Shown: positions 25,151 to 63,478, counted from the first letter of the stretch. The stretch: DNA of 64,000 nucleotides from a virus (IMGVR_UViG_3300028591_000083:1-64000); one strand, 5' to 3'. A program made the numbers and translations. Notes: generated from the letters alone by a model not told the origin.

Positions 25151-25414
25151 TTAAACTGTAACCTCAATCCAAAGAGACTTACTTCCTGATGCACTCAGAT
25201 ACTCTACTTCTACATCCATTAGTTCAGGTGTGTTTTTAAGAACATCTTTAAAATATTCTCCATCCGCAATCATATCTTCGGATGTTTTATCATAAATTCT
25301 AACTTTTTCATTTATTGCTGTCAGTTGAGCTAATAGACCCAGTGTAAGTCCTGAGTTTCTTATTGATTGAGCAACATAAGTTCTTATTGGAGATTCTTTT
25401 AGCTTCTTAACCAT
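25151..25414 (-). CDS. leader-tagged hypothetical protein (MVKKLKES)
   Basis: ORF with SD and shared leader. Confidence 0.7.
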   Translation of the reverse strand: MVKKLKESPIRTYVAQSIRNSGLTLGLLAQLTAINEKVRIYDKTSEDMIADGEYFKDVLKNTPELMDVEVEYLSASGSKSLWIEVTV

Positions 25415-25429
25415 TTACATTCACGCTCC

Positions 25430-26092
25430 TTAAACAAGCTGCATAAGAGTAGAATTTCTAGCACAAATAGCCATTAGTTCTCCTGTATCTCTCATTTTAA
25501 GTAAAGCACCATTCATTCCATATACTCCTGAAGAAACACCAATTACATCATATCCGCGATCATAGAGATCATTTGCTTCTTCAAAAGAATAAGTTGTGAT
25601 ATCTTCTGCTTTTCCGCTGCGAACAAGATCTCTTAGTTCTTTCTGAGTATACTTACGTCTACTAGATTCGGTCATTCTTTTTTGTCTGCGAGAACGCTGT
25701 CTTGGAATAACACATTCTTTCTTATGAGCATCCGCTTCTTCTCTCTCTTCCTCAATCTTATCAACAACTGGCTTTAGAGCGTCAATATAACTAAGACCTA
25801 CTCTCTTGAACCATTGCTTTACCATTTCAGAAGTAACACGAACTTTAACATCATATCCATCAACAGTGTCCTGAAATAGATCAATAAGAGCTTCATATGC
25901 AATAGAAGTTGCTTTTCTGCGCTTATTAAAGATTTCATCATAAAGTCTCTTTGTATTAAAGAGCCACATATCTACTGCATCAGAAATATAAACTAGCTCT
26001 GCTTTTCCGTCACTATCTTTGAAAGAATCATCAAGTGCCTGATATACCTGACGGCTATATCCCTTATCTACTTCTTTGATTAGCTTAATCAT
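25430..26092 (-). CDS. leader-tagged two-module hypothetical protein (MIKLIKE)
   Basis: Start after AAAGGTTG SD; internal KRMTES precedes second module. Confidence 0.7.
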   Translation of the reverse strand: MIKLIKEVDKGYSRQVYQALDDSFKDSDGKAELVYISDAVDMWLFNTKRLYDEIFNKRRKATSIAYEALIDLFQDTVDGYDVKVRVTSEMVKQWFKRVGLSYIDALKPVVDKIEEEREEADAHKKECVIPRQRSRRQKRMTESSRRKYTQKELRDLVRSGKAEDITTYSFEEANDLYDRGYDVIGVSSGVYGMNGALLKMRDTGELMAICARNSTLMQLV

Positions 26093-26121
26093 TTTGAAAT
26101 CAACCTTTCTTTGTATAAAAA

Positions 26122-26481
26122 TCAATAACCTAGTTCATCAAGTGCTGCACTGATAGCCTGACCGAGGAAATAACATCTAAGAGTTACATCTGCCCACTCA
26201 GGATCGGTGAGCGCTTTCTTATAAGAATCAGCTTCTCCGCCAAATTCCTCAATAGCTTCAACAAGATCATCTTCATTTCCGCGAACAGCATCTCTTGCCT
26301 CTTCTGCATTGAAGAAGAAAGAACCAGAACCGTTACCTGTAACAGAATCTTCTGCCCAAAGATCATCGTTCATAGACTGTTCAAGATCGTCTCTATCATC
26401 CGTATCCCAATCAAAATCATCTTTCCAATCTTCAAAGTTCTCGACAATAATGTCCTTCATTTCATCAACATAATTATACAT
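26122..26481 (-). CDS. small highly acidic protein (VTGNGSGS motif), DNA-mimic candidate
   Basis: 119 aa, strongly Asp/Glu-rich. Confidence 0.6.
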   Translation of the reverse strand: MYNYVDEMKDIIVENFEDWKDDFDWDTDDRDDLEQSMNDDLWAEDSVTGNGSGSFFFNAEEARDAVRGNEDDLVEAIEEFGGEADSYKKALTDPEWADVTLRCYFLGQAISAALDELGY

Positions 26482-26511
26482 AATAAAACATTCCTTTCTT
26501 AAAATAGTTTT

Positions 26512-27105
26512 TTATCTTCTTGAATTGAGCCTGTGAATAAATCTGCTTTTCATTGTTCTGTTCTCTTGCAGAGAATATTCAAGTTCACTCTCATTCAATA
26601 TTGATTCAGAAATTTTCAAAATAGATTCTTTGAAATAATCAAAATCAAACTTAAATTTGAAATCTCCGTGACGCGAGAAAAAGTCATCCGCATCTGATTC
26701 ATTGGAAATCTTATTATTGACTTCAACTTTACGATAATGTTCTGGATTATCTGCGTTTGTTTCAAAATAAATAAGTGTTGCAGGACTTGTATTGATTCCA
26801 TAGAAATACGATTCTTGTTCAAACCATTCTGCTAGATATTTGGCATCCTCCTTCGTGATATTGAACAACATAAAACTATGTTCAATATTTCCATATTTTC
26901 CTTCAATCGGAACATATTGGATTCCAAGTTCCTTTAACTTCTGCTTTAATTCTCTTGTATTCTTATTATTTTCCGATGCTGAATTTTTCATTCCCATTGG
27001 ATTTTCAGCGGAAAGAACAGCAAATGTTCTGATCTTACCGGAACTATCTCCAAACAGAGCTTGCTTTACTTTTGAATTTGGATTTTCTTGAATATAAAGT
27101 TTCAT
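26512..27105 (-). CDS. leader-tagged DUF3293-like protein (MKLYIQE)
   Basis: FAVLSAENPMG...EGKYGNIEHSF...FEQES pattern. Confidence 0.55.
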   Translation of the reverse strand: MKLYIQENPNSKVKQALFGDSSGKIRTFAVLSAENPMGMKNSASENNKNTRELKQKLKELGIQYVPIEGKYGNIEHSFMLFNITKEDAKYLAEWFEQESYFYGINTSPATLIYFETNADNPEHYRKVEVNNKISNESDADDFFSRHGDFKFKFDFDYFKESILKISESILNESELEYSLQENRTMKSRFIHRLNSRR

Positions 27106-27282
27106 ACATTCACCACCTATTTATCCAATGTGCGCTTCTTCAACGCACACCTTTATTGTTTACTATTTATTATTTTATTTTTACATTCTGTTATTTTTTT
27201 TATGTTTTATAAAATGGGGTTGGTTCTTTTTGTCGGATCATAGGATTCTCAACGCAAGAACCAACTCCCATATATTCAAGAA

Positions 27283-28119
27283 TTAGTGAAGAATTACCCT
27301 ATAATGTTCTCTTTGAATATTATATCCTCCTGCAATAATTGTTTCAAGTCTCGTAGATCCTCTGTCTCCGATAATAACGCCATTGATTGCCGGTCCGTTT
27401 ACTGTGAGATATTTGTAATCCTGAATAGTTCCTACTTTTTTCGTAACTCTACGAATAAGATCAAGCACATAAAAGTCAGAATCTTTATTTGCACGTTTTT
27501 CAAGTGTTTCATCAGAAACATCAAGCCAGTATTCATAATCAACAGCAACCGCACCATATTCATATGCGAGGCTTCTCATTTCCTTTTGCTTCGCGGAACC
27601 GAATAAACCAGACAATCTTATTGAAACTTCACTTGCGATATCACGATATTTAGTATATCTGTTAAGAAGCATCTCATAAATACCGTCTTTAAGTTCTTTC
27701 ATAATCGGCGGAAGATCATCTACAGACTTCTGTTTTGCGATTTCCATTTGAAGTTGTGTTTCATATTTAGTTTTCTTATCTTCAAGTTCAAAGATTTTAT
27801 TCCAACAAGAAAGCTGATCACGAATAACAGAAACTAAATCATAGTATTCTTTCCAGTGCTCATGTGCTACTTCACTGGAAATACCAAAATCAATATCTGC
27901 ATATTCATCATAAAATCTGTGACCCATTGAATTCGGCTTCTTGTTATATTTACTATATGAGGAATATTTATCATAGTCAGCTACTTTCATACCAATAGCT
28001 TTTTCAAGAGCTTCTTTCTTCTTTTGCTCTCTTGCTTCCAGTGTTTTGATTCTTTCTTCGCGCTTTTCGATATCAACGTTAATCTTATCCAGTTGATCTT
28101 GAATTTTCTGAATATCCAT
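27283..28119 (-). CDS. hypothetical early protein
   Basis: Start MDIQK after AAAGGAG SD and own sigma70 promoter; C-terminal ETIIAGGYNIQREHYRVIL. Confidence 0.75.
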   Translation of the reverse strand: MDIQKIQDQLDKINVDIEKREERIKTLEAREQKKKEALEKAIGMKVADYDKYSSYSKYNKKPNSMGHRFYDEYADIDFGISSEVAHEHWKEYYDLVSVIRDQLSCWNKIFELEDKKTKYETQLQMEIAKQKSVDDLPPIMKELKDGIYEMLLNRYTKYRDIASEVSIRLSGLFGSAKQKEMRSLAYEYGAVAVDYEYWLDVSDETLEKRANKDSDFYVLDLIRRVTKKVGTIQDYKYLTVNGPAINGVIIGDRGSTRLETIIAGGYNIQREHYRVILH

Positions 28120-28160
28120 TTTTACTCTCCTTTCACACAATCCATTTACCTTACAAATAT

Positions 28161-28189
28161 AGTATAACACATTTTAGAGTAAATGTCAA
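28161..28189 (-). promoter_or_regulatory. sigma70/sigmaA-type promoter
   Basis: TTGACA-17 nt-TATACT with extended -10 TG. Confidence 0.8.
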
Positions 28190-28274: not shown

Positions 28275-29057
28275 TTATTTAGTTCTTCTGTTTCTTTTTG
28301 ATCTCTTATAATTCTCTCTTGCAAGTTGTCTATTATCTCCGCCAAGAGTGTTAATAATGAAGTCATAAAGAACATTTACAGCTCTCATGAAAGCAATTCC
28401 ACGCTTTTTATGAACTGTATCCGGAATACCGTCATACTTAGGTGTGATATCTACATTCTTTCCGTCTGTTGTGATATCAAAAGAAGTTTCAGGATCATCT
28501 TCACGGTAAACAGTTACTTTTGGATTCATTGAACCGCCGATTGCCTTAAAAGCGCTTCCTAGCTTATTCATAAGTTGATTCTTGATTGTCATAAGAGATG
28601 CTGCTACTCCTTCGTCAACTCTATTTGTGCGAACACTCTCTGTAATCGGAGCTTCCTGAATATCAACAGAATAATCCGTGATTTCTACATTGTCATAATC
28701 CTCAATAGTAGAACCGACATAAGAATAATTCACATAACCTTTTACCGTAACAGTAACATCATATTCACTATTTTTATCCGGATTACTTAGTTTGAATTCC
28801 TTTTCTGCGTATCTAAGAATATCTCTTTCAACATCATCGAAAGCACTGTCTTTTAGATAATCATAATGAACATCTGACGGAAGATCACCGTTCTCAATAT
28901 CTACAACATCAAAATCAATAAGTTCACTGTTCCAGAATCTAACTTGCGGAGAAGTGAAATAAGAGAAATTGTATGTGAATTCGCATACAAAATCAAAACC
29001 ACTTTCTTGTGTTTTGTATATCGTCTGTTTTGGATATTCTTCAATATATAGTTTCAT
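28275..29057 (-). CDS. leader-tagged hypothetical protein (MKLYIEE)
   Basis: Shared leader; internal PITES. Confidence 0.75.
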   Translation of the reverse strand: MKLYIEEYPKQTIYKTQESGFDFVCEFTYNFSYFTSPQVRFWNSELIDFDVVDIENGDLPSDVHYDYLKDSAFDDVERDILRYAEKEFKLSNPDKNSEYDVTVTVKGYVNYSYVGSTIEDYDNVEITDYSVDIQEAPITESVRTNRVDEGVAASLMTIKNQLMNKLGSAFKAIGGSMNPKVTVYREDDPETSFDITTDGKNVDITPKYDGIPDTVHKKRGIAFMRAVNVLYDFIINTLGGDNRQLARENYKRSKRNRRTK

Positions 29058-29074: not shown

Positions 29075-30196
29075 TTAAATATCATGAATTCTCTCATATT
29101 TTGAGTTGTTCCATGATGTCAATAACATATCATATGCTTCTTGTTTTGTTCCATAAAATTCGTCATATGGATATTCATATTTACATACAGCCCAATATCT
29201 TTCGTCCCAATAACATTCTTCTGGAGTTTTACAAGGAATTAGTTTAACCTTTCTTATGTCGTATTTTGTAAGATATGTATCACTATCTTCATTTCTATTA
29301 AATACATCACTTTCAACATCATATTTCCAATAGGATTTATATGTATCTTCTTTCAATGATTCATTCTTACCGTATTTCTTAGTAAGTTTATCAATCATAT
29401 CTCCTGCCCACTTAGAAAGTTTCTTATCATCATTCTTATTCCAGACTTGTAGATTATTCAACGCTTTTGTAATTTTAGAAAGACCGTTCTTCTTTACAAG
29501 TTTTTCAAAATGAGACATTGGGAGATCATCTACATTTTTACCTTCTGGAACTTCGAGAATACCTTCATGTTTTACCTCGATTTTAGTATCTTGTTCTTTA
29601 AGGCTTCTTCCAGTTCTTTTTGATCTCTTGCTCTCATAAATATTATTATCTCTCATGATTTCGCCAATTCTCTTATCTGAAATAGTAAGTTTCTTTCTAT
29701 ATGCCCATAAAAGAATTAACTTGAAGAAAACTGGGTCTGTTGTGATTTCAATTTCACCTAAATCACCGTCAACTGGAAACCACTCACAATTTTCAACATC
29801 ATCCGTTTTAGTAGCAAAAGAAATAATAGCATCTGCATTTTCTTCCGGAACATCTGGAATAATAAACGTATCTACATCTGTAGATATTGTTGCTACTGGA
29901 CTTTCATTAATAGATTCTCTTCTAAGTCCTAATGCTCTGCCAACTGTTTTTTGTAGTTTGTTGTTATCAGGATCTATTGGTTCAAACCCTCTACCTTGAT
30001 CATATGTAATCTCAAAAGGTTCTCCAATCTCTTTCATTGTCTTTCCGTCAACTTCAACAGCAGCCCAAACACCTTTATTATTCTTAATACCTCTATAGAT
30101 GTTATAGTATTTTCTTCCTTCCGATCTCATTTCTAAGTATCTATACTCTTCATCTTCAAGACAAGGTGTATTAATCTCCTCAATATATAGTTTCAT
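29075..30196 (-). CDS. leader-tagged multi-module protein (MKLYIEE)
   Basis: Shared leader; internal SINES, NIYES, SLKEQ, KNES/LKED boundaries. Confidence 0.75.
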   Translation of the reverse strand: MKLYIEEINTPCLEDEEYRYLEMRSEGRKYYNIYRGIKNNKGVWAAVEVDGKTMKEIGEPFEITYDQGRGFEPIDPDNNKLQKTVGRALGLRRESINESPVATISTDVDTFIIPDVPEENADAIISFATKTDDVENCEWFPVDGDLGEIEITTDPVFFKLILLWAYRKKLTISDKRIGEIMRDNNIYESKRSKRTGRSLKEQDTKIEVKHEGILEVPEGKNVDDLPMSHFEKLVKKNGLSKITKALNNLQVWNKNDDKKLSKWAGDMIDKLTKKYGKNESLKEDTYKSYWKYDVESDVFNRNEDSDTYLTKYDIRKVKLIPCKTPEECYWDERYWAVCKYEYPYDEFYGTKQEAYDMLLTSWNNSKYERIHDI

Positions 30197-30212: not shown

Positions 30213-30635
30213 TTACTTTCTACAATTATGACAAGTATAATGATCTATTCCTGCACGTTCTCCAAGCATCATCCAATTTATATGTGGAATTGACGGTAAA
30301 TCCAGATTATAATAATCAATAATAATTTGTTTACATTCAGGATTATTTATACACTTATCTAAGAAAACAATGCATGAATAATCTTCAAACTTATCATTTA
30401 AGTCATAGTTAGGATCAATCATAATTCTGCCGCGAGGAAAGTAATCCCAAGCAACTTCTTTACCACCAACCAAATAATCTTTACTGAATTTACTCCATGT
30501 ATTTTGATGAGTTTTGCCGTTCAAAGAATAGTCATAATTATATTTTGGAACCTCAGATGTAATTCCAATAACTTCATTATTTATAATCCAAAAATATCCT
30601 TCATATGGATATACAGGACTTTCTTTTAGTATCAT
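30213..30635 (-). CDS. leader-tagged hypothetical protein (MILKES)
   Basis: GYFW...H..TW...YFPRGRI...HYTC pattern. Confidence 0.7.
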   Translation of the reverse strand: MILKESPVYPYEGYFWIINNEVIGITSEVPKYNYDYSLNGKTHQNTWSKFSKDYLVGGKEVAWDYFPRGRIMIDPNYDLNDKFEDYSCIVFLDKCINNPECKQIIIDYYNLDLPSIPHINWMMLGERAGIDHYTCHNCRK

Positions 30636-30725: not shown

Positions 30726-31343
30726 TCAACCTGCTACAGCAGCAGCTCTTTCAATCCAACTTGTTACATCATCATATAGATCATCAATATAAGTTGCAGA
30801 AGCATCATCATAATCGCCGTCAAAATCATACGTTGCTGTCCAAGCATTGTAATCATTTCTATTAGAATGTTCAAGAATAATAGTTGTTACTTCTTCATTC
30901 CCATATACAGAACTTAGAATAATCTCAAATGTATCTGCTCCTTCTCCTGCAAACTTAGTTCCTTTAATACTAAATAGAATATTGTTATCGTCAACAAATT
31001 CTTCTAGCTTTCCGAGAAATTCTTGAAAGTCATAATATGCAGCAGAACTAGCCTGAGATTCTTTTACCTGCTTCTTAGACTTCTTTTTCTTTCTTCCGCA
31101 ACCTTCATCAAATTCTTCCTCATCTTCAGATTCTTTCTGAGATTCTTCCCACTCATGGAACTCATACATTCTGAAAAGATAAGCAAGACACTTTGCAAGT
31201 TCTTCATTACCAAGGCAACGAACAATCGCTTCATTAGCTTCTTCTGCGCCAATAGCATCACAGAACATTTCATATGCTTCTTGTGCTTTCCAATCATCTA
31301 CTACCCAACCGTAGCTTTCTGCTTCTTTAATTAGTTTAATCAT
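30726..31343 (-). CDS. leader-tagged acidic two-module protein (MIKLIKE)
   Basis: Shared leader; linker EFDEGCGRKKKKSKKQVKES. Confidence 0.75.
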   Translation of the reverse strand: MIKLIKEAESYGWVVDDWKAQEAYEMFCDAIGAEEANEAIVRCLGNEELAKCLAYLFRMYEFHEWEESQKESEDEEEFDEGCGRKKKKSKKQVKESQASSAAYYDFQEFLGKLEEFVDDNNILFSIKGTKFAGEGADTFEIILSSVYGNEEVTTIILEHSNRNDYNAWTATYDFDGDYDDASATYIDDLYDDVTSWIERAAAVAG

Positions 31344-32668: not shown

Positions 32669-33484
32669 TTAAAGTCCGAGTTCAGCAAGAGTTTTGTTTC
32701 CGCCTTGTCTTTCAGGTGACTCTCCGTGTGTAATTTGTTCGATTTCAAAATCATCGAGGATTCGATGAACTCTAATCGCACCAGAGATGACCCAAGGAAC
32801 AGTGTCAGGATTAGGGTTTGTTCTATACTTGTAATACCCATTTACAGGAAGTTTTGGAAGTCCAGCAAGTGAATGTTGATACTTGTCAGAGCGATATGTT
32901 GATCCATCTGGGCGTGTTCTCATATACCCTTGTTCATCTGATTCAGCTTGATAATCAATATCCATAACATAATCACATTCTGCCCACACAAAGTCATAAG
33001 GAAAATATGGTGCATTATCATCTACAACTTGAACGCATTTACCAAGTTCATCAACATAGTATATATTACCTACATTAGATGCCTTTGCACAACTATTTAT
33101 AAATGTCTGCATTGTTCTTACAGACTTTACAGCTTCGTTTGGATCATCGTCTACAATTTTCCAACTGAAAGAACGATCAAACTGTTTTGCTATAGGATAT
33201 TCAGCACAATGCCAACCGGGACGATAGCTTAGGCTTCCTGAACCAGTTGACTTAACTTGTGGTCTACCTGTTTTCGATAATCCTGCAAATTCTCCTTCTT
33301 CTGCATCAAGCCAAACGCCTACAGGGGTATCAGCACCACCAGCGTTTGCAACCATCGGAGGATACAGCTTTCCATTCTTTACTCTAAATACTTTATATGC
33401 TTTACCCTTTACTGAATTTGAGTAATCTTTATCTGAAATCTTTTCATTCATCGGATTATTAGATTCTCTAATATATAGTTTCAT
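32669..33484 (-). CDS. leader-tagged protein (MKLYIRES) with YRPGWH motif
   Basis: Shared leader; KAYKVF...LYPPMV...LSYRPGWH. Confidence 0.75.
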   Translation of the reverse strand: MKLYIRESNNPMNEKISDKDYSNSVKGKAYKVFRVKNGKLYPPMVANAGGADTPVGVWLDAEEGEFAGLSKTGRPQVKSTGSGSLSYRPGWHCAEYPIAKQFDRSFSWKIVDDDPNEAVKSVRTMQTFINSCAKASNVGNIYYVDELGKCVQVVDDNAPYFPYDFVWAECDYVMDIDYQAESDEQGYMRTRPDGSTYRSDKYQHSLAGLPKLPVNGYYKYRTNPNPDTVPWVISGAIRVHRILDDFEIEQITHGESPERQGGNKTLAELGL

Positions 33485-33739: not shown

Positions 33740-34021
33740 TTAATCTTCCATTGACTTCTGCCATCTATCATTTCGCTCAGTAATGAAATAATAAAGTTCT
33801 TGTGCTACTTGTTTGATATCTCTCACTGAGTTTGCTTTCCTTGATTCTTTCCAACCTGAAATTTCTACAATCACATCCCAAAGTCTGTTCTGTGGCTTGC
33901 TGTAGTATGAACTGCAATAAGCATATCCAATTTCTTCATTTCCGATATAAATTGTGTATTGGTCAGGTTGTTCTTTTTGTAAACGAATAGACGACTGTGG
34001 ATTTTCAATAATTAGTTTCAT
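33740..34021 (-). CDS. leader-tagged hypothetical protein (MKLIIE)
   Basis: Shared leader, SD. Confidence 0.7.
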   Translation of the reverse strand: MKLIIENPQSSIRLQKEQPDQYTIYIGNEEIGYAYCSSYYSKPQNRLWDVIVEISGWKESRKANSVRDIKQVAQELYYFITERNDRWQKSMED

Positions 34022-37270: not shown

Positions 37271-37543
37271 TTATTCTTCATCCTTGAAGCCGTCAATGAG
37301 ATATGCACCCATTTGAACAAGGTATTCATCTCTTGCTTTTTTCAAAGATTCTGGTTCTTGTTTTGCCTTATAGGATTTATTATATCCATCAATATTTAAT
37401 TCCAAATCGCTTTCAAGGTCTTTTTCAAAATCTTCCTCAATTCTATCTTTTAAGAAATCCATAATCTCTTTAAGAAAATCATCATTAAGATCTTTACCGT
37501 TTATCCGTCTATCGGCTTCTTTAATATAAAGTTTCCGTACCAT
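37271..37543 (-). CDS. leader-tagged hypothetical protein (MVRKLYIKE)
   Basis: Shared leader. Confidence 0.7.
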   Translation of the reverse strand: MVRKLYIKEADRRINGKDLNDDFLKEIMDFLKDRIEEDFEKDLESDLELNIDGYNKSYKAKQEPESLKKARDEYLVQMGAYLIDGFKDEE

Positions 37544-39417: not shown

Positions 39418-40113
39418 TCACTCTACTCCTCTTAATTTAGTATTTGGTATTATTTGTTTTGCGGCTTCTTGAAGTGTTTTCATTTCTTCATCTGTGAATT
39501 CCTTACAACTAGGATCTATTACACAGTCACTCTGTAGATATTTCTGTAAATAGTAATGTTTACACTTATCTATCCACATAGCAATTCTTGTTATATCGTC
39601 TGCGGTATGAAGTGTTTTTGAACACGTTGTTCTGAATTCATAATCCGCATACTCTTGATTTATTAGAAATTCTACTGACTTATTTACTTTACCAACAATG
39701 ATCTTATCAATTCCACAAGTCTGAGAATATTTTTCCAATGAGTTCTTTATGTCCATTGCTATGTAATCTACATATCCTGACTTACAAAGTTCCTCTAATC
39801 TTTCCGGCATTGTTCCGTTTGTATCTATTTTTACAAGATATCCTAGTTCTTTGATTCTTTTTGCGAATTGAATAATATCAAGATTCAATAGTGGCTCTCC
39901 ACCTGAAATACAAACAGCGTCTAATCTTCCTACTCTTGATTCTAGGAATTTATAAATATCTTCTTCTGGAATAATATTTGTTGCCGATTCAACTACTAAT
40001 GATTTATTATGACAAAACGGACATCTTAGATTACATCCATGTGTGAATATTGTGCAAGCTACTTTTTCTGGATAGTCTAATAAGGATAGTTTTTGTAGTC
40101 CTGATATTATCAT
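39418..40113 (-). CDS. nrdG: anaerobic ribonucleotide reductase activating protein (radical SAM)
   Basis: MIISGLQKLSLLDYP, CNLRCPFC, SGGEP, KIDTNG, YEFRTT. Confidence 0.85.
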   Translation of the reverse strand: MIISGLQKLSLLDYPEKVACTIFTHGCNLRCPFCHNKSLVVESATNIIPEEDIYKFLESRVGRLDAVCISGGEPLLNLDIIQFAKRIKELGYLVKIDTNGTMPERLEELCKSGYVDYIAMDIKNSLEKYSQTCGIDKIIVGKVNKSVEFLINQEYADYEFRTTCSKTLHTADDITRIAMWIDKCKHYYLQKYLQSDCVIDPSCKEFTDEEMKTLQEAAKQIIPNTKLRGVE

Positions 40114-40119: not shown

Positions 40120-41850
40120 TCACTCACTATCTTTGTTGTTCTTTCTTCGTTTCTTTGTCTTGAAAACATCTCGCCAATCTTCCGGCTCTTTCGGATCACC
40201 GAAATAGTAAATACCATTCTTCATTCCGTCTTCATTCATGTAGGATGTTTTTGACGGTATACAAGCAGTATCTTCACTAATATATAGCTTCAATGACTCT
40301 GTTTTTGATTTTGAAGTTGGTTTACATTGAATATCATTTTCTTCACAATAGTCTTTTACATATTCATTATTTGTATATATAGTTAAATTATTGCAATCTG
40401 TAAAGGCATCCTCGTATATACCAGAAACACTGTTCGGAATTGTGGCAGATTTTAGATTTACACAACTATTAAAAGCATTGCCTTTAATTTGTTCAACGCC
40501 ATCTAACAATTTAAGGTTTTTTAGTTTTTCGCATCCTGTAAATGCATTGAAACCAATTACAGCTACACTTCCCGGTATAGTAATTGATTCTAAATTAGTA
40601 CAAAATTCAAAAGCAGAATGGCTGATTTTTTCAACACTGTTTGGAAGTGTAATCGCTTTAAGATTTTTGCAATTTGAAAAAACACTATTATCAATAGATT
40701 TTATACCACTAGATAATATTACAGAAGATAATTTTATACAGTATGAAAACCCGAAACTGCCTATATGAACTACATTATCAGGTATTTCGATTGATTGTAA
40801 ATTTATGCATCCGCTAAATGCTCGATCTCCAATCTCGGTAACACTGCTTGGAATTTTGATATATTTTAGACTTTCACATCCTGCAAACGCACTATATCCT
40901 ATTGTCTGCAAACTGTCAGGAAGTGTTACTGACTCTAGTTTTTTACAGTTGTAAAATGCCCCTTCTCTTATATGTTTTACACTGTTTGTTATTTTAACTG
41001 ATACTAAATTAGCACAATCTGCGAATGCATTATATCCAACAACACTCATGCCGTTACTTACTATAAGATTTTTTATCAACTGCTTTTGTGAATCACCTAA
41101 ATGTCCACCACTATATACAAAGGTGTCATCTGTAAGCTCCATCCCAAGCATCTTGCATATAAAGTGTCTTAATTGTTCACTTCCAACAATAATATCGTTA
41201 ATATCAAATGGATAATCGTTATCATCAAGAAAATCCCCCGTAGAACTTGAATATTGCCATCTATCACCAGTTGCCTTGTCTTTGATAATATATAATTTTC
41301 CACCGTCTTTTGTGTATTTATCATACCACTCTCTATTCTCATGGGCAGTACACCACTCTGTACCTTTTCCTAATTTCATACTAGCTTCATGGGTATTTGG
41401 AACATATACAATGTATTGATTATCTTCAAAAACAACATCATAATCATCCTCTGCTTCAGTGGAAATTCTTCCTGCTTTAACATTCTTCTTAAACCGTAAT
41501 TTCTGCCTATCTGAAAGCATTGAATCATCGTCAACAACCTGTGCTAAGATATCAGATAAATCATCTAAAGTCTTATAAGCATTAAGGTCTTTATTTTGAA
41601 TTCTATTTCTATATACTGTGAATTGATCCAATATCTTTGTCACGTCATCAAAGTCTCTATCTGAAATCTGTTTCTTATTATATAGATTCAGTATCCACTT
41701 TCCATATTTTCCAAGACTGTCTTTACCTCTATATGTTGGGTCAAGTGATATAAGTTCCATAAATGTATCATCATCTATATTTGGATAATACTTTTTTACA
41801 GCTTCTATATCTTCTATTAAATAGTTGCTTTCTGATATTCTTAATTTCAT
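40120..41850 (-). CDS. leader-tagged protein (MKLRISES) with BspA-type leucine-rich repeats
   Basis: About 10 repeats of LxSIxIPxSVxxIGxxAFxxC; N-terminal domain with GTEWCTA. Confidence 0.8.
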   Translation of the reverse strand: MKLRISESNYLIEDIEAVKKYYPNIDDDTFMELISLDPTYRGKDSLGKYGKWILNLYNKKQISDRDFDDVTKILDQFTVYRNRIQNKDLNAYKTLDDLSDILAQVVDDDSMLSDRQKLRFKKNVKAGRISTEAEDDYDVVFEDNQYIVYVPNTHEASMKLGKGTEWCTAHENREWYDKYTKDGGKLYIIKDKATGDRWQYSSSTGDFLDDNDYPFDINDIIVGSEQLRHFICKMLGMELTDDTFVYSGGHLGDSQKQLIKNLIVSNGMSVVGYNAFADCANLVSVKITNSVKHIREGAFYNCKKLESVTLPDSLQTIGYSAFAGCESLKYIKIPSSVTEIGDRAFSGCINLQSIEIPDNVVHIGSFGFSYCIKLSSVILSSGIKSIDNSVFSNCKNLKAITLPNSVEKISHSAFEFCTNLESITIPGSVAVIGFNAFTGCEKLKNLKLLDGVEQIKGNAFNSCVNLKSATIPNSVSGIYEDAFTDCNNLTIYTNNEYVKDYCEENDIQCKPTSKSKTESLKLYISEDTACIPSKTSYMNEDGMKNGIYYFGDPKEPEDWRDVFKTKKRRKNNKDSE

Positions 41851-45549: not shown

Positions 45550-45578
45550 AGTATAACACATTTTAATCTATTTGTCAA
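45550..45578 (-). promoter_or_regulatory. sigma70-type promoter (same family as 28161)
   Basis: TTGACA-17 nt-TATACT; shares AAAATGTGTTATACTATATTTGTAAG with the 28161 promoter. Confidence 0.8.
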
Positions 45579-54241: not shown

Positions 54242-56092
54242 TTAACCTGTCCATACTATTTGAGTTGATGTTGGAGCACTTGTTGATGCTCCCCACGGAC
54301 TTCCTGTTATACTTCCTTCTGTTTTGTTTATTGTTATTGTTGCTAGTGATTGACAACCGCTAAACACACTACTTCCAATACTTGTTACAGAGCTTGGAAT
54401 TGAAATTGAAGAAAGTGAAGAACAACTTTGAAACGTATAGGTTCCAATATTCGTAACAGAACTTGGAATTATGAGTGAAGAAAGTGAAGAACAGAATTGG
54501 AATGTCTCTTTGTTAATACTCGTAATAGTGTTTGGAATTGTAATTGAAGAAAGTGAAGAACAATTACGGAACACACCATTTCCAATAAGTGTTACAGTTC
54601 TTGGAATTACGACTGAAGAAAGTGAAAAACAACTTTGAAACGTATAGGTTGCAATATATGTAGCAGAACTTGGAATCGTGATTGAAGAAAGTGATATACA
54701 ATTACTAAACGCACTATCTCCAATACTCGTAATAGTGTTTGGAATTGTAATTGAAGAAAGTGAAGAACAATAATAGAACACCCTGTTAGCAATAGTTGTT
54801 ACAGAATTTCCGATCTCAATTTTTTTTATACTGTTTAAGTAGCCAATATCTGGAGAACTGTATGAGTTATTATTATTTGTTAGGAGTGAAGATATTGATG
54901 AAGAAGATGATTGTAATACAAATCCACCAGTAATAACAGTAATAGCAATAACATAACTTCCAGTATTTGAATATATATGTTGTTCATTTTTATAGTCCAC
55001 ACTTGTAGATGTGAATGTACTATGAGCGCTCCCATCTCCCCAATCTATATCTAATTCAGAATTAGCATTTAGATATAATTTAAGCCATGGAGACAGTCTT
55101 CCTTCTGTTAGTTCAATATAAATTCTTGTTTTACCGTCAGAAGTAATATACATTTGTCCAATATCCAACTTACCATAACTTGATACATATGTTTTAGCAT
55201 CTGATAATGACCAGTTCCATCCTTGTCCTGTTAATCCTTCATGTGTTGGATTTTCAGGTAAATTATCTAATGCTGCAAACTCTTGTGCTGTATACGATCT
55301 TACAATAGTTCCATCATAATCATAGAAGTTTACATCTTTTCTTGTAGCAGAACCACCTCCGCCACTAGGAACATTAACAGTAACAGAATTATACAAAGTA
55401 GTATCAACAGTTCCGTTTTCAGTAACTTCTGATGGCATTGCAGTTTGTGCTACAAGTGCTCCACTATCTACAACTTTACCTTCATCTTCGGCAGTATAGG
55501 TATTAGGAACATTTACATCAACTTTACTATATCCATCAGCAGAATCATCAGAAGCATTATATTCTCCATTAGCAGTAATAGTTTTTTCAATAAGAGTTGC
55601 CGATCCGCCACCGCCACCGGGAACAATACTTGTATCATCAAAAATAAGTTCAATATCAAAAGTATTAGTGATAGTTGTCCAAATATCAGGTTCATCATTT
55701 GTAACAATACCATTCACTGTTTTAATACTAGATACAACACCATTTTCTTGTGTATTATTATGCGCGGTAAGAGCTTCATTGTCAAATATAGGAGTTATTT
55801 TTAGATAGAATGATTGTGGAATATCATATAGCTGAAATGTTGCATTTTGAGCGATTCCATCTTCTGTAAAAATAGAAGATGTATCAATATCAAGATTAAA
55901 ATCTTTGCACCATTCATTATCAAGAGTGAACATTTTAATATTGATAGTTGGTAGTTCGGCAACCATTTGTTTTGTCCATGTTCCGCCGAGAGTAAGCATA
56001 ATCGTTCCACAATTAGACGGCGCAGAAATCAAAATAGATTCAGGATATGTATTAGATCTATCAATACTAGAAATAATCGTTGTTTGTGCCAT
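54242..56092 (-). CDS. virion-associated BspA-type leucine-rich repeat protein
   Basis: About 7 x 23-aa CSSLSSITIPxxVTxIG repeats (69-bp DNA period), IDWGDG motif, GSPWGA end. Confidence 0.8.
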   Translation of the reverse strand: MAQTTIISSIDRSNTYPESILISAPSNCGTIMLTLGGTWTKQMVAELPTINIKMFTLDNEWCKDFNLDIDTSSIFTEDGIAQNATFQLYDIPQSFYLKITPIFDNEALTAHNNTQENGVVSSIKTVNGIVTNDEPDIWTTITNTFDIELIFDDTSIVPGGGGGSATLIEKTITANGEYNASDDSADGYSKVDVNVPNTYTAEDEGKVVDSGALVAQTAMPSEVTENGTVDTTLYNSVTVNVPSGGGGSATRKDVNFYDYDGTIVRSYTAQEFAALDNLPENPTHEGLTGQGWNWSLSDAKTYVSSYGKLDIGQMYITSDGKTRIYIELTEGRLSPWLKLYLNANSELDIDWGDGSAHSTFTSTSVDYKNEQHIYSNTGSYVIAITVITGGFVLQSSSSSISSLLTNNNNSYSSPDIGYLNSIKKIEIGNSVTTIANRVFYYCSSLSSITIPNTITSIGDSAFSNCISLSSITIPSSATYIATYTFQSCFSLSSVVIPRTVTLIGNGVFRNCSSLSSITIPNTITSINKETFQFCSSLSSLIIPSSVTNIGTYTFQSCSSLSSISIPSSVTSIGSSVFSGCQSLATITINKTEGSITGSPWGASTSAPTSTQIVWTG

Positions 56093-56966: not shown

Positions 56967-58250
56967 TTAGCGAACAACAGAAACCATTTGTGAGCTATTC
57001 AAGAAATCAGAAATTTCATCCTCAGAGAATCCCCATTCAGATGCTTCTTTATAAAACTCATCAACACAATCGCCCCCGTAAGCCTTGAAGCAATTTTTGA
57101 AAATCTGCTTCAAAGGCAAAGGGAGTGCATTCATATAAAATAGTTTAGCATATAAGTCTTTGAAAACTCCGGTGCTATTAAATGGATACAGAGTAAACAT
57201 AGTTCCTGTTTTTAGTCTTGTTTCATTTTCATAGAATCCGGAATCTTCATAATCGTGGTAACTCATGTTATTTGGAACAAAAATCATTCCAACAAGATTT
57301 CCATGATCGAATTGATAATCTGAATAAACCTCGGCATCAGTGTATCCATCATTAAACTTTCCTTCTTCTCTCATTCTGGCGATATCATCATCTAAATAAC
57401 GGGCAACACCATATAGATATTTTGTATTAGTGTCAAACATATCAATGCTCATATCTTTATGAGTTTGCGCCAAAGCATCTGCGATACACCAGACATCGTA
57501 TTTCTTATCGTACAAAATTCTATATGGTTTTGGTTTATTTACAATCCAGTTAGCTATATCTTGCGCTCTATCTGTGCAATATGTTGATGGAGCAATTTCT
57601 TCTAGTGTTTCATTTATAAACAACTTCTTTCTGGTAAATGCCTCTTTCTTATCCTTACGACCTCTTATGTATTCTAATTCCTGAGTTTCAAGATATTGTA
57701 TATATTTATAGTAATCCTTAATCTTACATCTCATTTCATCTGCGGCATCAAGAAATGTTCTATCATAATACAATACAGTGTCTTTTGGTTTCTTTTTAGG
57801 ATCTTCGTTCCATTTCTTCTTTAGATTTTTTGTTGGATTGTGATCTGAAAATCTGAATTTAACGTGTTCATATTTATCTTTATTCTGATTATAGTATTGC
57901 TGTAGTTCCCTTTGTTTCGGTTTTGGAAAATTCACATATATGTATTCAGATAAACCAAGATCTTGCGATTTATCCGGCATTATTGAATCAACATAGTTTG
58001 TTTTTTCCAAACTATCAATAAAATCAGATACAAAGCTATGAACATCATCTTTTACATCTTTAATTGGATATTCTTTTACATATTGCTTTGCCTTAGACAT
58101 ATCAAATTCTTTATCTGGGTAAGCATCTTTCCAATAATCTTTCGCATACTTTATCCTATCTCTTTTAGATATAAGTTCTAATAAACACTCAACAAACTGT
58201 CTTCCGCTATATTTTAGTAGTGGGGTTTCATTAAGTAATTTCAATTTCAT
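56967..58250 (-). CDS. leader-tagged two-module protein (MKLKLLNE ... KKLFINE)
   Basis: Leader at the start and a second leader-like motif internally. Confidence 0.7.
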   Translation of the reverse strand: MKLKLLNETPLLKYSGRQFVECLLELISKRDRIKYAKDYWKDAYPDKEFDMSKAKQYVKEYPIKDVKDDVHSFVSDFIDSLEKTNYVDSIMPDKSQDLGLSEYIYVNFPKPKQRELQQYYNQNKDKYEHVKFRFSDHNPTKNLKKKWNEDPKKKPKDTVLYYDRTFLDAADEMRCKIKDYYKYIQYLETQELEYIRGRKDKKEAFTRKKLFINETLEEIAPSTYCTDRAQDIANWIVNKPKPYRILYDKKYDVWCIADALAQTHKDMSIDMFDTNTKYLYGVARYLDDDIARMREEGKFNDGYTDAEVYSDYQFDHGNLVGMIFVPNNMSYHDYEDSGFYENETRLKTGTMFTLYPFNSTGVFKDLYAKLFYMNALPLPLKQIFKNCFKAYGGDCVDEFYKEASEWGFSEDEISDFLNSSQMVSVVR

Positions 58251-58306: not shown

Positions 58307-59542
58307 TTAAATTGTGCAAAATGTTGAAATAAATCCTGATCTCATTTGCACAAATTGTAACTTTTTTAGTGATATTTGTTTTTCAAACGTCTTATCAAAT
58401 AAATCCTTTATTTGAAAACATCCCCTTACTCTTAATGAATTTATGTAATATAATTTATTTTCAAATTTTACTAAATCATACCGTCTAAATCCAAAAACTT
58501 CGTAACTACATTTATTTCTTTTCTTTGTATTTCCTTTTAGAATTTTGTCTTTGAATATTTTTCTATTATGTCTGCGAATTTTCTTAAAATAATAAACAGT
58601 TCCGCAAGATTTTGCTCTAGGATTTCCTGAAATACATCTTGCATCAATATAATGATCCTTGTGTAGATTGTTTGTTATTCTACAATTTTTTGTAATGTAT
58701 CCAAATGTCATTGTTACATTTTCATAAATTTCTTTTAACTTTTCATAAAATGTCCAACGCATTATTCCCATAAATGCCGCATCCTTAAATGACATACCTC
58801 TTTTTATGTCTAATTTTATTTTTCCGCTATGATAATTTTTATGACAAGTTTCACAAAGAGTTATCAAATTACTAGGTGCATTTCCTCCTGTTTTTCGGCT
58901 TTCAATGTGATGAACATTTAAAATATTGTCTTTTGACTTTCCTTTACAGTGTTGGCACATATGGTTGTCTCGAAAAAGAACGTATTCACGAACATTCCAA
59001 AAATTAAGTTGATCTCCTTGTTGATATTCAACACCGGAAATTGCAGGATTTTTTATTTTTTGAATATCGAAACTAGCTGTCTCTGCTATAATTATTGAAA
59101 TAGGTAGAATTTTATGAATCATTTTAACAACTTCAAGATGTGTTTCAATCTTCTGTCTTATTGATGGTGCTAACCATCCCTTTTTCTTAGATTTAATTCT
59201 ATTTTTGAATCTTGGTTTCCTGTATCGTGTTTTCCTGTTTCTTCTTGATCGTCTCGCTTCTCTTCTTGTCGATAAATTTTCAACAATATCATTTCTTAAT
59301 TCAACATTTGCTTCAAACAACACATCTTCATTTGTTGTTGCAGAAATACCAATATGTTTACTTCCTGCATCAACTCCTAATGAGATATCTTGTTTATATC
59401 CTGTACTACCGTAAAGTAGTTGAATTGTGAATGGTACCTTCTTTACAACTTTAGCTTTTTTGTTCTTCAAAAGTTTACGTGCTTTTTGCGGTGAACATGG
59501 CATAAGAGGTTTTCCATATTTATTTAAAACATAGACTAACAT
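58307..59542 (-). CDS. iscB: IscB RNA-guided endonuclease
   Basis: KPLMP, LGVDAGSK, RRSRRNRKTRYRKPRF, HNH CQHC...HHI...NLITLCETCH, HYIDA. Confidence 0.95.
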   Translation of the reverse strand: MLVYVLNKYGKPLMPCSPQKARKLLKNKKAKVVKKVPFTIQLLYGSTGYKQDISLGVDAGSKHIGISATTNEDVLFEANVELRNDIVENLSTRREARRSRRNRKTRYRKPRFKNRIKSKKKGWLAPSIRQKIETHLEVVKMIHKILPISIIIAETASFDIQKIKNPAISGVEYQQGDQLNFWNVREYVLFRDNHMCQHCKGKSKDNILNVHHIESRKTGGNAPSNLITLCETCHKNYHSGKIKLDIKRGMSFKDAAFMGIMRWTFYEKLKEIYENVTMTFGYITKNCRITNNLHKDHYIDARCISGNPRAKSCGTVYYFKKIRRHNRKIFKDKILKGNTKKRNKCSYEVFGFRRYDLVKFENKLYYINSLRVRGCFQIKDLFDKTFEKQISLKKLQFVQMRSGFISTFCTI

Positions 59543-60528: not shown

Positions 60529-60533
60529 AAAAA

Positions 60534-61073
60534 TCAGATATTAGAAACAGCAACATGAATTTCTCTAATTGCACTCTGAGCAAGATCAGTAATATATTCA
60601 GTAAGAGCATCTACATCAATATACTTATTGAATCTAGTTGTATCCCAGTCCTTATAGTTCCCGTGATTGTCAAGAACAGAAACGTCATCAAGAACTGTCT
60701 CAACAGTCTCGCCATCAACATTGATTTTGAAACTTAGATCAGCGGAATAATATTTGAAATCAGGTCTAAGACTATCATAATCAGCTTTAATGAATCTATC
60801 AAGATCAATATACTCACTGTCAGTATCAAATGTAATAGTATACTTCAAAGAGGCACCCCATGCAGTTCCAGTTGCGAAATATTCAAATGTATCTCTATCA
60901 ATATCACAGTAATCACCATGAGTTGCAAGTTCAGAATCATTAAGAACTTCATTAGCAACTCTACAAAGTTCATCTACCGTAGATTCATCAATAGCATCTC
61001 CATTTGAATCATAACCGAAACCGTAATCTTCATCACTTTCAAAATCTTCATCTTCAAGAATAAATAGTTTCAT
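60534..61073 (-). CDS. leader-tagged acidic protein (MKLFILE)
   Basis: Shared leader after AAAGGTTG SD. Confidence 0.75.
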   Translation of the reverse strand: MKLFILEDEDFESDEDYGFGYDSNGDAIDESTVDELCRVANEVLNDSELATHGDYCDIDRDTFEYFATGTAWGASLKYTITFDTDSEYIDLDRFIKADYDSLRPDFKYYSADLSFKINVDGETVETVLDDVSVLDNHGNYKDWDTTRFNKYIDVDALTEYITDLAQSAIREIHVAVSNI

Positions 61074-61402: not shown

Positions 61403-61414
61403 TTATATATCCTC

Positions 61415-61645
61415 TCAATAATTCATTGTTTCATCGTCTTCTTCATAAACAGAAACAACATCTTCCATGTGAAAATCTTTGATTGTTTTCTTTGCTGTTT
61501 GTTTCATTGTATAATTTACATACTGTTCAACAGCTTGTTTCACGCCGCAATCTGCACAGATCTCAGTTTTATTATCTGTTCTTGAAATTGCCGGAAATCC
61601 TGTAATCACTCGCTTACAAATTGGACAAGTAAATGTTTTTGGCAT
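61415..61645 (-). CDS. small zinc-finger protein
   Basis: CPICK...PAISRTDNKTEICADCG. Confidence 0.7.
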   Translation of the reverse strand: MPKTFTCPICKRVITGFPAISRTDNKTEICADCGVKQAVEQYVNYTMKQTAKKTIKDFHMEDVVSVYEEDDETMNY

Positions 61646-61698
61646 AATTCATAGTCTCCATTCTTTTAATTAGTGCATAGTGGTTTCGCACTAAATAT

Positions 61699-61727
61699 AG
61701 TATAACATATTATTGATAAAATGTCAA
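61699..61727 (-). promoter_or_regulatory. sigma70-type promoter
   Basis: TTGACA-17 nt-TATACT followed by ATATTT, as in the 28161 and 45550 promoters. Confidence 0.75.
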
Positions 61728-61782
61728 TAGCAAAATAGGAAAAATCCCCACAAATAAATGTGAGGATTTTTGTGCATATTGT

Positions 61783-62496
61783 TTAATTTTCCCAGATAGT
61801 TTCTGTAACGCCAAGATCATCAACAGGAACTCCATTGAAATCATACATAACATTATATGTTTCAACAGAAATTTGACTATCGGAATAATCTTCACTGGAA
61901 GATAGTTCTTCGGCAATTCTAATTGCTTCTGATTCATCTTCAACAGTATCGTATGTATCTTCATCAACAATGATATCATATTGAGTGTATGTATTTTCGC
62001 CTTGAACTGCCTTATCAATGTAGTTAATTACTTCTTTATCTGTAATTTTAAGTTCTACTTCATCACCAGAGTTATCGTTGATTTCACCAATAGTTCCGTC
62101 ATATGTAGAATGCATCCAACCTCCGCCAAAGTTGAATTTCATTTCATCAAAATTCTCATACAGATAATCAGAAATATACGAACATAGAGTTGCTTTATCC
62201 ATATCTCTTAGTTCAACATCATCTGCTGTTGAATACCAGTTTACATATACTTTCAGAATATCGGCTGAAACATTTTCAATATCGCCAGTTCCATAGTAAT
62301 AAGAATCAGCTTTCAGCGTATCAATAGTACAGTAACCATTTACTTCAACAATCCAACCTTTAGTCCATTCATCAATTTCCTGAAAATCAAGAACACGGGC
62401 ATTCTTAATTCCGATGTTTGAAAGACCATTTACTTCAATCGTATATCCTGCGCCAGCACCTTCATTTAGTGCAGATTCCTTAATAAATAGTTTCAT
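61783..62496 (-). CDS. leader-tagged acidic protein (MKLFIKESALNE)
   Basis: Shared leader. Confidence 0.75.
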   Translation of the reverse strand: MKLFIKESALNEGAGAGYTIEVNGLSNIGIKNARVLDFQEIDEWTKGWIVEVNGYCTIDTLKADSYYYGTGDIENVSADILKVYVNWYSTADDVELRDMDKATLCSYISDYLYENFDEMKFNFGGGWMHSTYDGTIGEINDNSGDEVELKITDKEVINYIDKAVQGENTYTQYDIIVDEDTYDTVEDESEAIRIAEELSSSEDYSDSQISVETYNVMYDFNGVPVDDLGVTETIWEN

Positions 62497-62512
62497 TGTA
62501 AGTCACATCCTA

Positions 62513-63478
62513 TCAAGCATATCTATCCACAAAGAAATCAGTTAGCTTACCATTTGTCTTACGGCGAGGATTCTTCGGATCACTGTCCAAATCAAAATAC
62601 AACTTAACACTAACAGAACCACTATTGTCCTTATCAGTAGTATATTCTTCCCATGTTTCATCTCTCTTGCTAGGTCCTGCCATTACAAACATATCAAATC
62701 CAAGATCGCGGAGATATTGCTGTGCTTTTGCTACAGGCTTACCTACATACTTTTCAAGAGCATATTCAAGAGAACCTAAATCTTCATCACGAGAACCAAA
62801 TTTAATCATATCGGATTCTTTAATTCTGCGCTTACTCTCAGTCATATCACTATAGAGCTTTGCAATCTGAGCCTTAGAACCTGCTTCAAAACCATTCTGT
62901 AAGAGAAATTCTTTAACGTGTCTAAGAGTAGTGGCAGATGAATCCCACTGTGGAAGAAGTTTTACTTTCTTTCCTTTTTCAAGCTCAATAACAGGAGTAT
63001 TATAAGAATATAGAATCTGAGTTCCATCAGAATCGGTAACTACTTTTGCTTTTCCGCCAAAAGATTTTCTGGAATCAAACTGAGTAGAAAGATCAGAAAC
63101 TTTACCATTTACCATTCTTCCTGCTTCACACACAGACTTAGATTCAGTGAAGATTTCAACGTCCTTAACACCGTCAACATAAAGATCATTATCATCATAT
63201 TCATAGTCATTTGCTTCCGCAATAACAACTTCAAAGAATGTTCCAACAATCTCACGCAAATCTGTCTCGCTGTAATCAAGAAGCGGATCTCCAAATGAAT
63301 TGCAATACTCAATAATACTATCAGTAAGACCATTATCATGTTGACAGATAGAGATAAACTTATCCTTTACATCCCACAGATCATACTTATCTCCTTCAAA
63401 AATTAGCTTGCCTTTGTAATAGAATTTGATTGGCTTTGATTCGCCGTAAGATTCTCTAATTCTAAGTTTCTTTACCAT
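62513..63478 (-). CDS. leader-tagged three-module protein (MVKKLRIRES)
   Basis: Modules separated by IFTESKSVCEA and MTESKRRIKES; middle module LYSYNTPV...SATTLRHV. Confidence 0.75.
   Translation of the reverse strand: MVKKLRIRESYGESKPIKFYYKGKLIFEGDKYDLWDVKDKFISICQHDNGLTDSIIEYCNSFGDPLLDYSETDLREIVGTFFEVVIAEANDYEYDDNDLYVDGVKDVEIFTESKSVCEAGRMVNGKVSDLSTQFDSRKSFGGKAKVVTDSDGTQILYSYNTPVIELEKGKKVKLLPQWDSSATTLRHVKEFLLQNGFEAGSKAQIAKLYSDMTESKRRIKESDMIKFGSRDEDLGSLEYALEKYVGKPVAKAQQYLRDLGFDMFVMAGPSKRDETWEEYTTDKDNSGSVSVKLYFDLDSDPKNPRRKTNGKLTDFFVDRYA

Follow-up and report, generated by a model that had tools for sequence, protein, structure and literature searches.

The described system that comes closest in mechanism to the one we report here is the capsid targeting sequence (CTS) of phage T4, which was reportedly found on T4 internal proteins by Mullaney and Black in 1996, and truncation and fusion experiments demonstrated that this leader alone is sufficient for targeting. 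The CTS is present in IPI, IPII and IPIII, and both the CTS and the propeptides of Alt, gp24 and other proteins are removed by the gp21 protease, as reviewed (PMC3012670, PMC9026906). The internal proteins of T-even phages are diverse, with only the targeting sequence conserved (PMC3012670). In the jumbo phages phiKZ, 201phi2-1 and SPN3US, head and ejection proteins are processed by gp21-related proteases, with multiple cuts per protein and with a large protein mass ejected (PMC9026906, PMC7411985, PMC10052503). Phages and conjugative elements also encode polyvalent proteins, in which several effector modules are joined in one polypeptide (Iyer et al. 2017, PMC5512222). Here, we analyze a 64,000-nucleotide stretch of phage DNA (IMGVR_UViG_3300028591_000083:1-64000; the window), in which many otherwise unrelated genes begin with a short leader ending in a hydrophobic residue, any residue, and Glu. 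We refer to genes with this leader as tagged.

The window covers the first 64 kb of a phage genome of 207,349 bp (33.6% G+C) that carries nearly all of its genes on the minus strand; tail and head genes, identified by Pfam, occupy 1-25 kb, and the tagged array occupies the next 45 kb, upstream of the head genes. By analogy with T4, we think it likely that these leaders are a capsid-targeting and propeptide tag of the T4 type that has been scaled up, and that is used in addition as a polyprotein linker. In such a system the tag would bring a protein into the assembling prohead, beside a core of protease and scaffold, the S77 protease would cut after the leader Glu, and the mature protein would stay in the capsid with the DNA and enter the cell at infection. 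The same motif, usually located behind a basic linker, would also join modules inside longer proteins, so that several cargo genes would encode small polyproteins taken apart by the protease.

The leader array and the rule of the prohead protease

Genes were called from codon statistics and a Shine-Dalgarno score, independently of a preliminary description of the window, and this gene call recovered all 19 leaders that the description had proposed, as well as the N-terminus of the protease, at the same positions. Every one of these starts has a start codon with a Shine-Dalgarno sequence 7-12 nucleotides (nt) upstream. For comparison, we read the whole of an IMG/VR phage genome (G001; 201,895 bp) with a protease 64% identical to that of the window phage, which was reached by an exact-pattern IMG/VR scan for ATGAAACTNTATATTNNNGAA that returned 32 single matches, mostly at chance level. 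The tagged genes of the window are the following, with the predicted cut position marked by a slash and protein lengths given in amino acids (aa):

25151..25414, minus strand: MVKKLKE/S, 87 aa (gene call)
25430..26092, minus strand: MIKLIKE/V, 220 aa; internal basic linker RRQKRMTE/SS (25667-25681)
26512..27105, minus strand: MKLYIQE/N, 197 aa; S-adenosylmethionine (SAM) lyase-like fold (DUF3293 / S-AdoMet_lyase family)
28275..29057, minus strand: MKLYIEE/Y, 260 aa; no Pfam or PHROG match
29075..30196, minus strand: MKLYIEE/I, 373 aa; internal RSLKE/Q (29594-29608) and ESLKE/D (29348-29362)
30213..30635, minus strand: MILKE/S, 140 aa; G001 orthologue 92% identical with identical leader; untagged paralogue 129227
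30726..31343, minus strand: MIKLIKE/A, 205 aa; internal KKKKSKKQVKE/S (31059-31073)
32669..33484, minus strand: MKLYIRE/S, 271 aa; matches phrog_30118 (function unknown)
33740..34021, minus strand: MKLIIE/N, 93 aa
34034..34573, minus strand: MKLIIKE/D, 179 aa
34585..35511, minus strand: GTG start, MKLIFE/D, 308 aa; internal AKRRSVKE/S (34975-34989)
37271..37543, minus strand: MVRKLYIKE/A, 90 aa
37556..37858, minus strand: MKLLYE/Y, 100 aa
39180..39416, minus strand: MRLHIRE/K, 78 aa; directly downstream of nrdG
40120..41850, minus strand: MKLRISE/S, 576 aa; BspA-type leucine-rich repeat (LRR) protein (Pfam LRR_5, E=2e-66)
40273..40293, minus strand: internal leader copy TES-LKLYISE/D in the LRR protein, aa 520-526
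56967..58250, minus strand: MKLKLLNE/T, 427 aa; internal TRKKLFINE/T (57609-57629)
60534..61073, minus strand: MKLFILE/D, 179 aa
61783..62496, minus strand: MKLFIKE/S, then a flexible ALNEGAGAG stretch, 237 aa
62513..63478, minus strand: MVKKLRIRE/S, 321 aa, multi-module; internal TES-KRRIKE/S (62816-62833)

Past the window, four further leaders are present at 67364 (MVKKLNE), 68308 (MIRRLHE), 68729 (MVKKYMKE), and 69306 (MIKLMKE). The array described earlier is therefore real, and the estimate of about 20 tagged genes was slightly low, the genome total being 23-24 genes with ~5,100 codons. All 19 leaders in the window, and all four beyond it, end in [L/I/M]-x-E within 5-9 residues, i.e., they consist of Met, 1-2 Lys/Arg, 1-3 bulky hydrophobics, and then [L/I/M]-x-Glu, in two overlapping shapes (MKL[YIFRL][IL]xE and M[IV][KR][KRL]L..xE), with Ser directly after the Glu in 8 of 23 leaders. 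When scored with one pattern, a short basic-hydrophobic leader ending in [L/I/M]-x-Glu, 22 of 67 genes at 25-70.7 kb match versus 6 of 247 elsewhere (Fisher p=1e-11), which upholds the enrichment of the motif in this region; under a looser definition of the leader, only 1.6% of sequence windows starting at internal Met residues match. Two of the six matches outside 25-70.7 kb belong to a five-member paralogue family in which the N-terminus is part of the domain. The members of this family (105404, 146223, 153290, 153767, and 172410) are ~150 aa long and 37-49% identical, and start with M.IRL.TEF or MVTLFEF, which mimics the tag yet belongs to a conserved domain; at least two of them lie directly behind early-type promoters.

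The claim that the sequences after the Glu are unrelated also held, with an all-against-all BLASTP search returning 0 pairs among the tagged proteins at 25-70.7 kb. The protein encoded at 30213 (MILKES) matches untagged 129227 only, and by eye also resembles the tag-like 171032. The upstream DNA of the tagged genes contains nothing in common except the ribosome-binding site. Genes in sigma-70 promoter islands, lysis genes and fibre genes had been described as lacking the tag, and we observe the same: the first gene behind each of four strong promoters is untagged (4/4), as are the GH25/CHAP endolysin gene (46808-48268) and an LRR fibre-like gene (54242-56092).

The gp21-like protease predicted for this phage is indeed encoded, by a Peptidase_S77 gene between the portal and capsid genes. 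The landmark genes and sites of this region are as follows:

5603-8119: sheath (Pfam)
17241-18098, 15841-16245, and further pieces, minus strand: gp23-type capsid gene, in pieces (Pfam Gp23 match begins at residue 77)
17907..17921, minus strand: probable capsid maturation site RMLNE/ATNSS, after residue 64, just before the Gp23 domain
18163..19863, minus strand: prohead protease, Peptidase_S77 (T4 gp21 type; Pfam PF03420, E=1.5e-11), with a long scaffold-like coiled coil fused to it as a tail
20689..22449, minus strand: portal (T4 gp20 type), without tag (Pfam Portal_T4, E=1e-47)
22463-24910: probable large terminase with intein (Pfam Intein_splicing)

The rule of this protease is readable from its presumed obligatory substrates, i.e., its own N-terminus, its tail, and the capsid protein. 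The N-terminus is MRVLIE...LKLNES, and 25 homologues show no change at L4-I5-E6 or L14-x-E16 and almost none at S17; in T4 gp21, LIE-9 conforms to the protease's own cleavage logo (PMC9026906). Behind the catalytic domain, the scaffold-like tail of the protease contains 10 [LIVM]xES sites in 566 aa, ~13x the background of 1.3 per 1000 aa in other proteins, as expected of a scaffold that is chopped up. The probable capsid site is kept as R-LAE/ATNSS in G001, and its position matches that of the T4 gp23 cut, Glu65/Ala66. The leaders follow the [L/I/M]-x-E rule that is seen at the N-terminus of the protease, in its scaffold tail and in the propeptide of the capsid protein. A complex prediction with the protease domain and residues 1-40 of 32669-33484 gave a score of 0.00, which is no evidence either way, and an AlphaFold2 model of 32669-33484 without alignment was unusable (predicted local distance difference test [pLDDT] 34). 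Protease homologues are numerous in the database (644 at E<=1e-20), many of them on contigs of 199-220 kb.

Turnover, internal junctions and identity of the tagged proteins

G001 contains leaders on ~24 genes, in the syntenic region and at two other spots. Its head genes are 60-84% identical to those of the window phage, and it has orthologues of 22 of 22 head and tail genes versus 12 of 23 tagged genes, with 6 colinear from the N-terminus. This agrees with the proposals that the tagged set is variable, with fast turnover between relatives as at T4 internal-protein loci, and that the tag is portable, with the same leader on different bodies in relatives and with copies at domain junctions. For example, the first 24 aa of 25151 are 92% identical to those of its G001 counterpart, and are followed by unrelated bodies (proteins of 87 versus 213 aa). 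In the case of 29075, both this protein and its G001 counterpart (MIKLFME) are tagged, their N-terminal halves differ, and common blocks (aa 197-312 and 248-373, 72-76% identity) occur in a changed arrangement.

The constraint on the leader appears to be mostly on the protein. Orthologous leaders change in sequence and length and keep the pattern, as is the case for MRLHIRE/MKLYIHE (39180, orthologue 73% identical), MKLLYE/MVRLLE (37556, where the G001 orthologue starts MVRLLEYE), MKLIFED/MMKLVFED (34585, orthologue 68% identical), and MIKLIKE/MRKRYARLKE (25430). Leader codons vary synonymously, with all common Leu, Ile, Lys, and Glu codons present.

Tag-like sequences also occur inside proteins. 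The internal TES-LKLYISE/D of the LRR protein opens a 57-aa module that in G001 is a gene of its own, tagged and 63 aa long (MKLRINED), with 74% identity in what follows the internal leader; this internal leader copy has TTG in place of ATG and no ribosome-binding site. Conversely, 60534 starts with MKLFILED, and this N-terminus corresponds in G001 to residue 99 of an open reading frame (ORF) of 270 aa, behind ESNRRKN-MKLRIDE/D. Junctions of the form basic linker-[LIVM]-x-E-[SDQ] are present inside 25430, 29075, 30726, 34585, 56967, and 62513.

The tagged proteins are mostly acidic (median isoelectric point 5.1), and scans of them with Pfam, PHROG and NCBIfam were almost all blank; Pfam gave the same outcome for ten others, nine of them from G001 and one from L058. 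No family match to T4 internal proteins was found for the tagged proteins in Pfam or PHROG, and an ESM Atlas search with 29075-30196 gave no usable match. One member, 26512-27105, matches Pfam DUF3293 (E=4e-13) and scores 23.2 bits against S-AdoMet_lyase, below the cut-off of 28. The AlphaFold2 model of this protein, from a 42-sequence alignment, has a pLDDT of 91.5, and in this model the leader (residues 1-8) has no predicted secondary structure, with the first ten residues averaging pLDDT 60. In a Foldseek search, the T3 SAM lyase 8bb1_E ranks first (E=7e-4, prob 1.00), and the top set, all phage SAM lyases (8bb1_E, 6znb, 6zm9, 7ock), has prob 0.98-1.00 and template modeling (TM) scores by target of 0.37-0.66, at 11-18% sequence identity to the solved enzymes. 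The model thus predicts a fold like that of the phage SAM lyases (T3 SAMase / Svi3-3), and the protein looks like an early-acting counter-defence enzyme.

In two relatives, homologues of 26512-27105 are located upstream of the terminase; the one with readable DNA is tagged (MIKLKNES). Among the 150 best homologues, 50 domain starts could be located, and P3 is L or I in 33 of these; L/I at P3 before the conserved Glu occurs alike at N-termini, with varied leader length, and at internal junctions of multi-domain proteins. In cultured Flavobacterium podophages, a module of this type is present inside an ORF of >3,600 aa annotated as "structural protein". Another tagged protein is 62513-63478, where the middle domain (aa 122-221, 62816-63115) corresponds to a stand-alone ~90-aa protein of SPO1-like phages, and ends exactly at the TES-KRRIKE/S junction. 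The stand-alone homologues come from phages of Bacillus, Staphylococcus, Enterococcus, and Lactococcus, and in several of these phages they are encoded no more than a few kb from a genome end. Both the SAM-lyase fold and the SPO1-like stand-alone domain fit early action after injection.

Leader arrays are present in further phages. On two contigs, 199 and 206 kb long and with proteases that are 51-53% identical, the 5 kb upstream of the terminase contains the leaders MKLCIKES, MKLKIDES, MIKLKNES, MIKLSIKES, MVLKES, MIKLITEG, MIKKLRINES, and MVRKLTINEE. A cultured phage of Streptococcus agalactiae, vB_SagM-GXN1 (protease 36% identical), has six small genes that start with MRL[IV][RK]LxE[DS], four of them within or beside its head and tail genes. 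A portal-based IMG/VR search returned only phages that are 34-39% identical, with no leader arrays in the flanks, and we found no description of such arrays in the literature on GXN1, DUF3293 or large capsid-targeting repertoires in jumbo phages. There is an even chance, in our judgment, that a clade of ~200-kb ruminant-gut phages uses a minimal tag of 5-9 residues, read by a protease-scaffold fusion, in two ways: it would load more than 20 fast-exchanged proteins, including a SAM-lyase-fold enzyme and stand-alone domains of Firmicute phages, and it would serve as a cut-here linker, so that cargo genes could fuse and split without losing delivery. Such a phage would carry a modular and evolvable "pre-made early proteome".

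Expression timing, alternative explanations and neighbouring features

An early-type promoter, TTGACA-17-TGnTATACT/TATAAT, is present in 38 copies genome-wide, all intergenic and all located at 28-195 kb, with none in the structural blocks at 1-25 kb and beyond ~195 kb. These look like phage early promoters for the host RNA polymerase. Copies in the window are located at 28161, 43428, 45550, 45649(+), 50452(+), and 61699, and the following features lie among the tagged genes:

28161..28189, minus strand: early-type promoter, TTGACA-17-TGnTATACT; first gene (27283-28119) untagged
43428-43456, 45550-45578, and 61699-61727, minus strand: early-type promoters, first gene behind each untagged
39418..40113, minus strand: untagged NrdG-type activase of anaerobic ribonucleotide reductase (radical-SAM; TIGR02495 NrdG2 equivalog)

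Several observations weigh against a T4-type tag. We infer cleavage, packaging and ejection by analogy. The tagged genes have four early-type promoters and nrdG scattered among them, and a tag-like gene in the early region (96706-97104, 132 aa, MKLYVSESP) begins 45 nt behind an early-type promoter, so that late, head-coupled expression cannot be taken for granted. A T4-like candidate late box, TATAAATT, precedes only two tagged genes, along with the terminase gene, the protease gene, and one tail gene; these sites are too few, and the motif too AT-rich, to settle the timing. A mostly acidic cargo is unlike the basic internal proteins of T4. Leaders are absent from the 41 kb around the head genes examined in Bacillus phages SP-15 and HSE3 and Listeria phage LIS04, all of which have the same protease family. 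Within the tagged proteins, internal [LIVM]xES sites are only 2.2-fold enriched (p=0.015), and [LIVM]xE without the Ser shows no enrichment, so that the polyprotein proposal leans mainly on the junction homologies rather than on counts. Finally, some DNA-level inheritance or constraint is also present in the leaders, as the Leu codon CTA is over-used in them (12 of 26, versus 15% genome-wide; p=1.6e-4). This excess means that some leaders probably share descent at the DNA level, as would be expected if new genes were recruited behind an existing leader.

Some of these same features could be read in other ways. The leaders might be protease-cut propeptides of assembly parts, i.e., of a transient core or scaffold or of head-internal structural proteins, and not of injected effectors, a reading that we regard as unlikely. 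It would account for the motif being densest in the scaffold-like tail of the protease, and for most tagged proteins being acidic, of low complexity, and without a recognizable enzyme domain; however, assembly parts are normally conserved, and G001 lacks orthologues of half of the tagged set, while the fold of one member is that of an enzyme of early anti-restriction and another member is an LRR protein. The turnover and the SAM-lyase fold argue against an assembly role for at least part of the tagged set. Improbable, in our view, is that the shared start is a feature of the nucleic acid, either a translation-start enhancer for AT-rich mRNAs or a homology patch for gene shuffling, with no role for the peptide. 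The leader DNA is AT-rich (ATG AAA CTA TAT ATT) with its over-used CTA, the tagged region is a gene-exchange zone, and T4-type phages reportedly shuffle genes via short conserved cassettes (PMC2839356). Nevertheless, it is the Glu and the L/I/M two residues earlier that are fixed, while other positions, length and codons vary, and the highly expressed capsid, sheath and portal genes have no MKL-type start. The motif is also copied in frame at domain junctions, in one case with TTG and without a ribosome-binding site, and in GXN1 the nucleotide sequence differs and the peptide rule is the same.

Two further explanations seem to us far less credible. The location of a radical-SAM gene (39418-40113) between two tagged genes raises the question of whether a different enzyme, for instance a radical-SAM maturase with its gene in the array, recognizes the leader as its tag; but this gene is an NrdG2 equivalog (206.8 bits versus a cut-off of 131) without a SPASM domain, and no other candidate modifying enzyme was seen. 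As the sole radical-SAM gene is this equivalog, we rejected it as a tag maturase, and we hold any such modifying system to be very doubtful. It is just as hard to believe that the tagged genes all belong to a single, highly diverged family of paralogues of which the leader is the last recognizable remnant. A small family with a common body does exist (30213, 171032, and untagged 129227), but there are no BLASTP pairs at 25-70.7 kb, the proteins are 78-576 aa long, the folds that could be identified are not alike (SAM-lyase-like and LRR), and clearly different bodies stand behind the leader between relatives. We therefore retain a T4-type targeting and propeptide tag as the reading that we favor.

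Several features adjoin the promoters, the head genes and the array. A hairpin with a 20-bp stem (43358-43311), terminator-like, is located ~70 nt past the promoter at 43456-43428 and before gene 41906-43219, and the promoter-hairpin unit at 43311-43456 may represent a small RNA or a regulated leader. At 62.5-70 kb, an A-run, a hairpin of ~12-17 bp, and a T-run stand ahead of each of several tagged genes (63479-63611; 66-70.7 kb), and at two of these genes a box, TATAAATTTATC, is present upstream of the hairpin, which places the hairpin between a putative promoter and the gene. In T4-type phages, variable genes are flanked by promoter-stem-loop cassettes, which this layout resembles. The pieces of the capsid gene (13208-18098) have two ORFs between them, one GIY-YIG-like (16508-17131) and the other also endonuclease-like (14019-14939), which suggests intron or homing-endonuclease insertions. 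The intein part of the terminase matches a 1289-aa ORF at 74900-78769 by BLASTP, i.e., related inteins are present in at least two genes of this phage. An IS605 OrfB/TnpB-like gene (OrfB_IS605 and Cas12f1-like TNB domain; 49127-50356, plus strand) adjoins 48493-49137, and both have counterparts in G001 at another place (~131 kb), so that the element appears mobile. A gene with RRXRR and HNH endonuclease domains (58307-59542) breaks into the tagged region and has no orthologue in G001.

A megablast search with the head region against GenBank phages returned zero matches. The whole probe stretch is present in one sequencing run only, a sheep-gut metagenome; cattle-gut runs contain about a fifth of the probe's sampled words, a goat-gut run slightly fewer, and a sheep-gut metatranscriptome run (X2, RNA) contains 22%, which by itself is no evidence of expression.

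Relation to described systems

If the tag works as it does in T4, the injected protein set of an uncultured clade would be readable from the genome, with ~two dozen candidate injected proteins per genome, nearly all of unknown function; this cargo would act before phage gene expression, and its members would be prime counter-defence candidates. The T4 targeting principle would then be older and more general than the T-even examples, would work in phages of Gram-positive hosts, and would extend to one gene in five over a 45-kb region. In addition, a tag of 5-9 residues would provide a means of loading foreign proteins into Firmicutes phages, and GXN1, with its variant of the tag, offers a cultured system for testing whether the tag works in this way.

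Compared with polyvalent proteins and with the giant internal virion proteins of podophages, which are delivered with the DNA and proteolysed, the phage described here also has several effector modules per polypeptide. Unlike the polyvalent proteins, it has only 2-3 modules in each, and apparently depends on the head protease and a recurring linker motif rather than on a built-in peptidase domain. With phiKZ, 201phi2-1 and SPN3US it shares a T4-like protease; in those phages the protease cuts many head-internal proteins after Glu, as it would here by analogy, recognizing the Glu in a short motif with few other determinants and with propeptides at either end. Their reviews describe no common N-terminal tag, unlike the recognizable tag at the very N-terminus found here.

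The resemblance to T4 comprises an S77 protease, a short N-terminal leader ending in hydrophobic-x-Glu that is common to otherwise unrelated proteins, a protease that itself has an N-terminal LIE, and a cargo that differs between related phages while the leader is kept. Unlike T4, where the leader is 10 aa long and is carried by a handful of proteins, the leader here is 5-9 aa long and more degenerate and is found on ~23 genes, the protease is fused to a scaffold, and the motif is also present at internal junctions; the cargo is mostly acidic, with bodies that have no homology to the T4 internal proteins. The hosts, again unlike that of T4, are probably Firmicutes of the ruminant gut, with the closest cultured relatives infecting Streptococcus, Bacillus, and Listeria. 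This system therefore differs from that of T4 in scale, leader length, probable host group, protease-scaffold fusion, cargo charge, and the use of the motif as an internal linker.

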